Assembly (NCBI RefSeq): GCF_055900595.2 | Contig: NZ_CM148325.1 | DNA length: 64,000 nt | Reading direction: 5' to 3' (one strand) | Shown here: positions 20,124 to 24,561 of the stretch, one piece after another | Layout: each line of letters begins with the position of its first letter | Position numbering within the stretch: the first letter of the stretch is position 1 | The notes under the pieces: model-generated | Seen by the model: only the letters and a program-made list of their open reading frames with translations | Told to the model about the DNA's origin: nothing | Databases searched by the model: none | Translations under genes and position numbers: made by a program

Positions 20124-21008
20124 ATGGAACGCGTATATAGAACAGATCTTAAGTTGCTCCGTTATTTTCTTGCCGTAGCGGAAGAGTTGCATTTTGGTCG
20201 CGCAGCAGCGCGTTTAAATATGTCTCAGCCTCCGCTCAGTATTCATATTAAAGAGCTGGAAAATCAACTCGGCACGCAGCTTTTTATTCGCCATTCGCGC
20301 AGCGTCGTACTGACACACGCGGGCAAAATCTTGATGGAAGAATCGCGTCGATTGCTGGTGAATGCAAATAATATATTGGCTCGGGTTGAACAAATAGGTC
20401 GGGGAGAAGCAGGGCGGATTGAACTCGGGGTTGTGGGAACGGCAATGTGGGGACGGATGCGCCCGGTTATGCGGCGATTCCTTAGAGAAAATCCTAACGT
20501 TGAAGTTCTGTTTCGCGAAAAGATGCCCGCGATGCAAATGGCCTTGCTGGAACGCCGCGAACTTGATGCCGGGATCTGGCGAATGGCGACAGAACCACCG
20601 ACTGGTTTTACCAGCTTACGGTTGCATGAATCGGCGTTTCTGGTGGCGATGCCTGAAGAGCATCATCTCTCATCATTTTCCACCGTCCCGCTGGAAGCGC
20701 TACGTGACGAGTATTTCGTTACAATGCCGCCCGTGTACACTGACTGGGATTTTTTGCAGCGAGTTTGCCAGCAGGTGGGATTTTCACCGGTTGTTATTCG
20801 CGAAGTTAATGAACCGCAAACGGTACTCGCCATGGTCAGTATGGGTATTGGTATCACATTGATAGCGGACAGCTACGCGCAGATGAACTGGCCCGGTGTC
20901 ATATTCCGTCCGCTCAAAGAACGCATCCCGGCAGACTTATATATTGTTTATGAAACGCAGCAGGTGACGCCCGCGCTGGTTAAACTGCTGGCGGCGTTGG
21001 CGCAGTAG
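20124..21008 (+). CDS. xapR: LysR-family activator XapR (start trimmed to MERVYR)
   Basis: LysR HTH (LKLLRYFLAVAEELHFGRAAARLNMSQPPLSIHIKELE); 294 aa from trimmed start. Confidence 0.9.
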   Translation: MERVYRTDLKLLRYFLAVAEELHFGRAAARLNMSQPPLSIHIKELENQLGTQLFIRHSRSVVLTHAGKILMEESRRLLVNANNILARVEQIGRGEAGRIELGVVGTAMWGRMRPVMRRFLRENPNVEVLFREKMPAMQMALLERRELDAGIWRMATEPPTGFTSLRLHESAFLVAMPEEHHLSSFSTVPLEALRDEYFVTMPPVYTDWDFLQRVCQQVGFSPVVIREVNEPQTVLAMVSMGIGITLIADSYAQMNWPGVIFRPLKERIPADLYIVYETQQVTPALVKLLAALAQ

Positions 21009-21078
21009 ATGAGAGGCACGGGAACTGCCGGACATAGTTGGTCTGATAAGCGAAGCGCATCAGGCAATTTCGCAAATT

Positions 21079-21291
21079 GCAGATAGCAAAAAAGCGCCTT
21101 TAGGGCGCTTTTTTACATTGGTGGGTCGTGCAGGATGACTCGCTTCGCTCGCCCTTCGGGCCGTCGCCGCGAGCGGCTCCGTTGTTTCGCTGCGCTCAAC
21201 TCGAACCTGCTGCAGGTTCGAATCTTTGAGTATCGCAGATAGCAAAAAAGCGCCTTTAGGGCGCTTTTTTACATTGGTGGGTCGTGCAGGA
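21079..21291. repeat. 57-bp direct repeat (two copies, 21079-21135 and 21235-21291) comprising the lysV terminator plus the 3'-terminal 17 nt of tRNA-Lys
   Basis: gcagatagcaaaaaagcgcctttagggcgcttttttacattggtgggtcgtgcagga occurs twice 156 bp apart; second copy continues into intact lysV. Confidence 0.7.
21243..21269 (-). terminator. Rho-independent terminator of the valU-valX-valY-lysV tRNA operon
   Basis: On minus strand: stem agcgcc/ggcgct followed by TTTTTT, immediately 3' of lysV CCA end. Confidence 0.55.
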
Positions 21292-21349
21292 TTCGAACCT
21301 GCGACCAATTGATTAAAAGTCAACTGCTCTACCAACTGAGCTAACGACC
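21274..21349 (-). tRNA. lysV: tRNA-Lys (anticodon UUU)
   Basis: Reverse complement reads GGGTCGTTAGCTCAGTTGGTAGAGCAGTTGACTTTTAATCAATTGGTCGCAGGTTCGAATCCTGCACGACCCACCA. Confidence 0.95.
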
Positions 21350-21353
21350 CGAA

Positions 21354-21429
21354 GTGGTGGGTGATGACGGGATCGAACCGCCGACCCCCTCCTTGTAAGG
21401 GAGGTGCTCTCCCAGCTGAGCTAATCACC
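21354..21429 (-). tRNA. valY: tRNA-Val (anticodon UAC)
   Basis: Reverse complement reads GGGTGATTAGCTCAGCTGGGAGAGCACCTCCCTTACAAGGAGGGGGTCGGCGGTTCGATCCCGTCATCACCCACCA. Confidence 0.95.
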
Positions 21430-21475
21430 CACTTCGGTACTTCACATTTTTACAAGAAATCTAGCTGGCGAGAAA

Positions 21476-21551
21476 GTGGTGGGTGATGACGGGATCGAAC
21501 CGCCGACCCCCTCCTTGTAAGGGAGGTGCTCTCCCAGCTGAGCTAATCACC
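21476..21551 (-). tRNA. valX: tRNA-Val (anticodon UAC)
   Basis: Identical 76-nt copy of the tRNA-Val sequence. Confidence 0.95.
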
Positions 21552-21596
21552 CACTTCTCAATTTCTTGCTACACGGCGGAGACTACATAAAGTAGT

Positions 21597-21672
21597 TGGT
21601 GGGTGATGACGGGATCGAACCGCCGACCCCCTCCTTGTAAGGGAGGTGCTCTCCCAGCTGAGCTAATCACCC
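21597..21672 (-). tRNA. valU: tRNA-Val (anticodon UAC)
   Basis: Identical 76-nt copy; promoter-proximal gene of the operon. Confidence 0.95.
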
Positions 21673-21689
21673 CCGCTGTGTGGAGTCGC

Positions 21690-21717
21690 ATTATAGGGAG
21701 AGTTCAAAATGAGTCAA
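21690..21717 (-). promoter_or_regulatory. Near-consensus sigma70 promoter of the valU tRNA operon
   Basis: Minus strand reads TTGACT-16 nt-TATAAT with about 8 nt to the valU 5' end and an AT-rich upstream region. Confidence 0.55.
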
Positions 21718-21930
21718 CGCATTTTCTAAAGAAATTGTTCGTTCGTCGTAAATTTAAGCAAGATGATCGCAAAACAGACCGTGTTGCGCAATTTGTCAAC
21801 GAAAACAATAATGCGTAAGGTTGCAACCCGAACTACATTGAGGAATCAGGCGGGAGTGATAGAATATCGCCCACTCAATTTTTCCAGGATTTGCCGGTTG
21901 TCGGCATCTTTCTAAACGTAAGGCCATTTC

Positions 21931-23346
21931 ATGAAAATCAAAACTCGCTTCGCGCCAAGCCCAACAGGCTATCTGCACGTTGGCGGCGCGCGTACTGCTC
22001 TTTACTCCTGGCTTTTTGCACGTAACCACGGCGGTGAGTTCGTGCTGCGTATTGAAGACACCGATCTTGAGCGTTCCACGCCGGAAGCTATCGAAGCCAT
22101 TATGGATGGTATGAACTGGCTGAGCCTGGAGTGGGATGAAGGTCCGTACTTCCAGACCAAACGTTTTGATCGCTACAACGCGGTGATCGATCAGATGCTG
22201 GAAGAGGGCACTGCCTATAAATGCTACTGCTCCAAAGAGCGTCTGGAAGCGCTGCGTGAAGAGCAAATGGCAAAAGGTGAGAAACCACGTTATGACGGTC
22301 GCTGCCGCCACAGTCATGAGCATCACGCTGATGATGAGCCGTGTGTCGTACGTTTTGCTAACCCGCAGGAAGGTTCTGTTGTTTTTGACGATCAGATCCG
22401 TGGTCCGATCGAGTTCAGCAACCAGGAGCTGGATGATCTGATTATCCGCCGTACCGATGGTTCCCCAACCTATAACTTCTGTGTGGTTGTCGATGACTGG
22501 GATATGGAAATCACCCACGTTATACGTGGCGAAGACCATATCAACAACACACCGCGCCAGATTAACATTCTGAAAGCGCTGAAAGCACCGGTACCGGTTT
22601 ACGCGCACGTTTCTATGATCAACGGCGATGACGGTAAAAAACTGTCCAAACGACACGGGGCGGTCAGCGTCATGCAGTATCGTGACGACGGTTATCTGCC
22701 AGAAGCATTGCTGAACTATCTGGTGCGTCTGGGCTGGTCCCACGGCGATCAGGAAATCTTCACTCGTGAAGAGATGATCAAATACTTCACTCTGAATGCC
22801 GTCAGCAAATCTGCCAGTGCGTTCAACACCGACAAGCTGCTGTGGCTGAACCATCACTACATTAACGCGTTGCCGCCGGAGTATGTTGCTACTCATTTAC
22901 AGTGGCACATTGAGCAGGAAAATATCGATACCCGTAACGGCCCGCAGCTGGCTGATCTGGTGAAACTGCTGGGCGAACGCTGCAAGACGCTGAAAGAGAT
23001 GGCACAGAGCTGCCGTTATTTCTACGAAGATTTTGCTGAGTTCGATGCTGACGCCGCGAAAAAACATCTGCGTCCGGTTGCGCGTCAGCCGCTGGAAGTG
23101 GTTCGTGACAAACTGACTGCGATTACTGACTGGACCGCTGAAAACGTTCATCACGCTATTCAGGCGACGGCGGATGAGCTGGAAGTGGGTATGGGTAAAG
23201 TTGGTATGCCGCTGCGTGTCGCCGTAACCGGTGCGGGGCAGTCTCCGGCGCTGGATGTTACCGTTCACGCAATCGGTAAGACCCGCAGTATCGAGCGTAT
23301 CAACAAAGCGCTGGCTTTTATTGCTGAACGCGAAAATCAGCAGTAA
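21931..23346 (+). CDS. gltX: Glutamyl-tRNA synthetase
   Basis: 471 aa; class I HIGH motif ([15 protein letters not shown]) and KMSKS-like KLSKR; divergent from tRNA operon. Confidence 0.97.
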
Positions 23347-24309: not shown

Positions 24310-24338
24310 TTGACACATTCGGGCGGAATTCATATGAT
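24310..24338 (+). promoter_or_regulatory. Candidate sigma70 promoter of the tRNA-Ala pair
   Basis: TTGACA-17 nt-TATGAT followed by GC-rich discriminator gccgcccg typical of stable-RNA promoters, about 30 nt upstream of first tRNA-Ala. Confidence 0.45.
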
Positions 24339-24370: not shown

Positions 24371-24446
<76 letters not shown>

Positions 24447-24485
24447 AATTTTGCACCCAGCAAATTTGGTACGTAAACGACTCGT

Positions 24486-24561
<76 letters not shown>

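Follow-up and report, generated by a model that had tools for sequence, protein, structure and literature searches.

The minus-strand element TTGACT–16 nt–TATAAT at positions 21690-21717 of the window, by which we mean the whole 64-kb stretch of DNA analysed here, is almost certainly valUp, the only sigma-70 promoter serving the valU-valX-valY-lysV operon of E. coli, belonging to the rrn P1-like class and accompanied by an UP-like region and a putative Fis site near −71. To judge by their titles, papers of 1990 and 1998 had already described this promoter, its divergence from gltX and its control by Fis, and the transcription start was re-mapped in 2014.

The valU core promoter and its transcript

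The valU strand, read 5′ to 3′, runs gcg TTGACT cattttgaactctccc TATAAT gcgactcc A cacagcgg and then passes into tRNA-Val (GGGTGATTAGC). In the consensus scan, TTGACT, the 16-nt spacer and TATAAT at 21690-21717 (minus strand) matched the consensus at 11 of 12 positions. Reading of the minus strand proved the hexamers, the spacer and the coordinates given in the preliminary description to be exact. The core promoter comprises the following elements.

21712-21717, minus strand: −35 hexamer TTGACT, matching TTGACA at 5/6 positions
21696-21711, minus strand: spacer cattttgaactctccc, 16 nt, read from the sequence
21690-21695, minus strand: −10 hexamer TATAAT, matching the consensus at 6/6 positions
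21682-21689, minus strand: discriminator GCGACTCC, G+C-rich (6/8 G+C), read from the sequence
21681, minus strand: transcription start, A, the ninth base past TATAAT (Agrawal et al. 2014; EcoCyc alternative, the A at 21679)
21673-21681, minus strand: 5′ leader ACACAGCGG, 9 nt, removed by RNase P, delimited from the sequence and the tRNA boundary

The site has the sequence features of a sigma-70 promoter, namely a −35 hexamer with five of six matches, a −10 hexamer with six of six and a spacer whose 16 nt lie within the range of 16–18 nt. A mapped 5′ end is further expected 5–9 nt past the −10 hexamer; the literature start, at the ninth base, falls in this range, whereas the EcoCyc start, at the eleventh base past TATAAT, fits it more poorly.

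The locus is that of E. coli K-12. Of 5426 complete E. coli genomes, 5425 contained a match to the 1-kb region around the promoter, and the annotation under this match consisted of gltX, three tRNA-Val genes, tRNA-Lys, RtT and xapR. In MG1655, valU occupies 2520931-2521006 and is followed by valX, valY and lysV, with gltX divergent. The window and MG1655 agree base for base from 5′ of the −35 hexamer to the end of valU, with window position w corresponding to MG1655 position 2542603 − w. Accordingly, the promoter shares its locus, its operon and its divergent gltX neighbor with valUp of K-12, and the promoter itself shows no differences. When the promoter and its upstream DNA (21673-21765, 93 nt) were used as a query, all but one of the 5426 genomes (5425) carried the sequence in a single copy, and 5345 records matched it with an identity of 99% or more.

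The start of the valU operon has been mapped from cloned and sequenced circularised RNAs of wild-type and RNase P/E mutant strains, and was placed 9 nt 5′ of mature valU, compared with 7 nt in EcoCyc (Agrawal, Mohanty and Kushner 2014, PMC4176162). We carried the published start to window position 21681 through the sequence identity with MG1655, where it corresponds to 2520922 (plus strand; 2518944 in U00096.2) and the EcoCyc start to 2520924. The two starts differ by 2 nt, and both of them (21681 and 21679) lie inside the limit of 15 nt from the predicted position that the preliminary description had set. The same description placed the promoter about 8 nt before the first tRNA-Val. This figure holds for the distance from start to tRNA only (9 nt as mapped, 7 nt in EcoCyc) and does not apply to the end of TATAAT, which lies 17 nt from the tRNA boundary at 21672 called by ARAGORN.

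The four tRNAs are made as one transcript that ends at a Rho-independent terminator just past lysV, and RNase P cuts at the mature 5′ end of valU in a processing pathway that is unusual and ordered (PMC4176162). The downstream operon was identified as valU-valX-valY-lysV by ARAGORN and by the MG1655 annotation, in agreement with the earlier assignment, and the gap between valY and lysV is 4 nt (CUUC), in agreement with PMC4176162. Its parts are as follows.

21597-21672, minus strand: valU, tRNA-Val(UAC) (ARAGORN; Rfam tRNA, 65.9 bits; MG1655 annotation)
21477-21552, minus strand: valX, tRNA-Val(UAC) (ARAGORN; Rfam; MG1655 annotation)
21355-21430, minus strand: valY, tRNA-Val(UAC) (ARAGORN; Rfam; MG1655 annotation)
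21275-21350, minus strand: lysV, tRNA-Lys(UUU) (ARAGORN; Rfam; MG1655 annotation)
21242-21272, minus strand: Rho-independent terminator hairpin of the valU operon (folding; terminator described in PMC4176162)

The terminator hairpin had a folding energy of −19.1 kcal/mol (z = −6.2), and 0 of 200 shuffled sequences folded equally well. The terminator scan missed this lysV terminator, probably because its A and U runs pair and consume the T tail, but the hairpin is clearly seen on folding. The end of lysV (about 20 nt) and the terminator are directly repeated at 21080-21137 and 21236-21293 (minus strand). The repeats flank an RtT RNA (21119-21244, minus strand; Rfam score of 51.6 bits, gathering score of 45), which is present in 0, 1 or 2 copies in E. 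coli annotation and is thus polymorphic in copy number.

We examined how far such a site could be expected by chance. The pattern TTGACT-N15-19-TATAAT occurred once in the 64-kb window (0.01 expected). Sites with at least 11 of 12 matches numbered two when both strands were scanned over the full window, and first-order Markov surrogates gave an expectation of 0.88. A site is thus not significant by its score alone, which favors a reading in which the valU hexamers are a chance match to the consensus and the operon is transcribed from some other start, for example through read-through or a more distant upstream promoter. We consider this reading extremely improbable, because the mapped start lies 9 nt past the valU −10 hexamer, and because the consensus scan found the valU site to be the sole promoter-like match on the minus strand in 20900-22100. 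Moreover, the upstream DNA belongs to the divergent gltX, leaving no source of read-through, and the hexamers and their 16-nt spacing are invariant across at least five families of Enterobacterales while the center of the spacer drifts. Both sites with at least 11 matches, the valU site and 24310-24338 (plus strand), directly precede tRNA operons, and it is this placement, more than the score alone, that marks the valU site as non-random. None of the observations spoke against its assignment as a promoter.

The second of these sites is listed below.

24310-24338, plus strand: TTGACA-17-TATGAT, 11/12 in the consensus scan, before two tRNA-Ala(GGC) genes (24371-24561)

This site is likely the promoter of the alaX-alaW operon. 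Like the valU promoter, it has at least 11 of 12 consensus matches, adjoins a tRNA operon and carries a G+C-rich discriminator (GCCGCCCG). Unlike the valU promoter, it has a 17-nt spacer, the hexamers TTGACA and TATGAT, and a longer stretch of about 32 nt between the −10 hexamer and the tRNA, and it lacks a divergent partner.

Conservation across Enterobacterales

To follow the promoter through related bacteria, species-representative genomes were scanned for the initial 56 nt of gltX by means of a degenerate pattern, which is independent of both the tRNA and the promoter. At least 120 loci were found, 7 of which had too little upstream sequence. In at least 99 Enterobacterales species, gltX was accompanied by a divergent tRNA-Val(UAC) gene preceded by TTGAC[T/C/G]-16-TATAAT, and these loci span Enterobacteriaceae, Erwiniaceae, Pectobacteriaceae, Yersiniaceae and Hafniaceae. 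No tRNA gene was found within 600 nt upstream of gltX in 14 of the loci listed, which comprised 13 from Gilliamella/Orbaceae and one from the reduced endosymbiont Candidatus Steffania. From these 14 loci, the divergent gltX-valU arrangement appears to be a trait of Enterobacterales proper and not of all their relatives. The loci concerned are L004, L038, L044, L046, L049, L052, L076, L093, L095, L106, L109, L114, L120 and L043; Gilliamella/Orbaceae and Candidatus Steffania share the GltX N-terminus.

Among the matches listed, 95 loci, the window included, could be parsed automatically with a regular expression that allowed a spacer of 15–19 nt and a −10 hexamer of the form TAnnnT. In this listed set, the spacer was 16 nt long in 95/95 loci, and the −10 hexamer was TATAAT in all 95 despite the permissive TAnnnT pattern. 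The −35 hexamer was TTGACT in 90 of these listed loci, with TTGACG (3 loci) and TTGACC (2 loci) making up the rest. Likewise, the last four bases of the spacer were TCCC in 93/95, the discriminator GCGACTCC was identical in 88/95, the ninth base past the −10 hexamer was A in 93/95, and the distance from the −10 hexamer to the tRNA was 17 nt in 81/95 of the parsed loci among the matches listed.

Column by column, the 81 distinct sequences among the matches listed were 94–100% conserved over the hexamers, TCCC, the discriminator and the leader, with 94–98% for the leader ACACAGCGG itself, and only the center of the spacer fell to 51–80% identity. The combination of fixed core elements with a variable spacer center indicates a promoter signature rather than a generally frozen sequence. 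It amounts to a clean phylogenetic footprint of the hexamers, the spacer length, the discriminator and the +1 position across about 100 species among the matches listed. The valU site is a strong, real promoter that could be recognized from sequence alone.

The conservation of the leader bears on another explanation, in which the block from the −10 hexamer to the tRNA is conserved mainly by constraints on the precursor RNA (RNase P substrate, 5′ leader/3′ trailer), the valU promoter is simply strong and constitutive, and its rrn-P1-like regulation is over-read. The 94–98% conservation of ACACAGCGG among the matches listed goes beyond what a promoter alone needs, and the unusual, ordered processing of the valU transcript by RNase P (PMC4176162) points in the same direction. 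However, conservation is equally high in the discriminator GCGACTCC, which is not transcribed, and in the TCCC preceding the −10 hexamer, and each element of the layout has its counterpart in rrnB P1, which makes this explanation very improbable as a replacement for an rrn P1-like promoter. Constraints on the RNA and on promoter kinetics are compatible with each other and do not exclude one another.

Two symbiont genomes depart from the common pattern downstream of the promoter. In Candidatus Symbiopectobacterium (L103), the promoter is kept and the first tRNA is called as tRNA-Cys(ACA) by ARAGORN. In Serratia symbiotica (L085), the promoter is also kept, and no tRNA was detected for about 125 nt beyond it. 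These observations suggest that the first tRNA-Val copy is decaying in both genomes.

The rrn P1-type layout and the upstream region

In MG1655, rrnB P1 reads TTGTCA ggccggaataactccc TATAAT gcgccacc A, with the discriminator GCGCCACC. The valU promoter shares with it a 16-nt spacer ending in TCCC, the −10 hexamer TATAAT, a G+C-rich 8-nt discriminator beginning with GCG, an A start nine bases past the −10 hexamer, and A+T-rich DNA 5′ of the −35 hexamer. The two differ in the −35 hexamer (TTGACT in valU, TTGTCA in rrnB P1) and in the upstream region, which in valU is less A+T-rich and fits the UP consensus more poorly. In addition, valU has one promoter, whereas rrnB has the tandem P1/P2, and the valU leader is 9 nt long, whereas that of rrnB extends over hundreds of nt. 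An alternative sigma factor for valU was considered and rejected, since the hexamers are a near-perfect sigma-70 consensus and the layout is that of rrnB P1.

Three hallmarks distinguish rRNA promoters: an UP element rich in A+T between −60 and −40, a discriminator rich in G+C, and a start nine bases past the −10 hexamer, the latter two being tied to an unstable open complex and to sensitivity to DksA/ppGpp (Shin et al. 2021, PMC7822876). Two of these three hallmarks, the discriminator and the start distance, are present outright in valU, and for the UP element the evidence is partial. The footprint described above lends support to a view of valUp as a growth-rate-tuned promoter of the rrn P1 type in Enterobacterales as a whole.

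Upstream of the −35 hexamer, the AT-rich character noted in the preliminary description was borne out, as 21718-21765 has a G+C content of 33%, compared with 49% for the window. Two features were assigned in this region.

21718-21743, minus strand: A+T-rich, UP-element-like region, −62 to −37, 69% A+T
21745-21759, minus strand: Fis-like site GCTTAAATTTACGAC, centered at −71 from the mapped start, found by motif match

By hand count, the UP consensus was matched at 9/11 positions of the distal subsite and 5/8 of the proximal subsite, the latter being a weak match in E. coli. This sequence match is suggestive of an UP element at valU. The Fis-like site GCTTAAATTTACGAC fits the motif GNTYAAWWWTTRANC at 10 of 13 specified positions, and weaker matches to the Fis motif occur at −91 and −112. 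Its center at −71 coincides with the position of Fis site I of rrnB P1. A looser Fis motif, GNNYRNNWNNYRNNC, has six matches within the 258-bp gltX-valU intergenic region; because it is too permissive, we did not count it alone as evidence, and the match at −71 was retained since it is also conserved. The outer G and C of this site are kept in 99% of the 81 distinct Enterobacterales sequences among the matches listed. From this motif and its conservation, Fis may bind at −71.

Two further blocks stand out in the same 81 distinct sequences among the matches listed: AAAA at 21722-21725 (minus strand; −44 to −41), conserved at 99–100%, and CGAAC at 21741-21745 (minus strand; −64 to −60), conserved at 95–100%. 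The surroundings of both blocks vary. AAAA fits the proximal UP subsite, and CGAAC extends into one end of the Fis-like site, which does not by itself account for the block. The near-invariance of CGAAC, together with that of the discriminator and the leader ACACAGCGG, may reflect an extra constraint on the valU locus, either through a factor other than Fis that acts at CGAAC and coordinates gltX with valU, or through a leader-dependent step in ordered 3′-to-5′ processing by RNase P; we regard such a constraint as unlikely.

For valUp as an rrn P1-like promoter, the following course of events can be proposed. The sigma-70 holoenzyme of RNA polymerase would recognize TTGACT and TATAAT over the 16-nt spacer and begin transcription at the A at window position 21681. 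The transcript consists of the 9-nt leader, the four tRNAs and the terminator hairpin, and is then cleaved by RNase P. By analogy with rrnB P1, this architecture would give a short-lived open complex sensitive to ppGpp/DksA, with an output that is under growth-rate control, tracking growth rate and dropping under ppGpp/DksA. The A+T-rich UP-like region, by contact with the alpha-CTD, and Fis bound near −71 may both raise activity during fast growth.

The gltX side of the intergenic region

The valU promoter faces away from gltX, whose relevant features are as follows.

21931-21986, plus strand: gltX coding start, with ATG at 21931 (pattern match; MG1655 annotation)
21838-21865, plus strand: candidate gltX promoter TTGAGG-16-TAGAAT with an extended −10 TG (scan, 9/12 with TG)

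The paper of 1990 reportedly describes three gltX promoters, P1–P3, and one conserved candidate was identified here. The divergence of the valU promoter from a gltX promoter, as proposed in the preliminary description, was corroborated by the back-to-back hexamers on opposite strands within one intergenic region of 258 bp. The −35 hexamers of valU (21717-21712, minus strand) and gltX (21838-21843, plus strand) are 120 bp apart, and the core promoters do not overlap. When 96 intergenic regions among the matches listed were aligned, the conserved blocks included both gltX hexamer regions and the gltX ribosome-binding region. An equivalent arrangement, gltX(<) valU(>), is present in Salmonella.

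The idea of shared control of gltX and valU, raised in the preliminary description, agrees with two paper titles (Brun, Sanfacon, Breton and Lapointe 1990, J Mol Biol 214:845; Champagne and Lapointe 1998, Mol Microbiol 27:1141), the second of which links Fis to the gltX/valU promoters. Co-regulation of gltX and valU is supported by these two titles, by the arrangement of the genes and by the conserved Fis-like motif. Given that the upstream DNA lies between the valU and gltX promoters, Fis bound there could act on both of them.

The gltX-valU intergenic region of the window differs from that of MG1655 at only three single bases, 21822, 21824 and 21876, all of which lie toward gltX. On the plus strand, GGTAGAAACC of K-12 is replaced by GGTTGCAACC in the window, and a single A/G change lies closer to gltX. 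The three differences fall in the central part of the intergenic region, where conservation is low. In the 5′ untranslated region of gltX, a short hairpin (TGCCGGTTGTCGGCA; 21892-21906, plus strand) is followed by the T-rich TCTTTC, 25 nt before the ATG.
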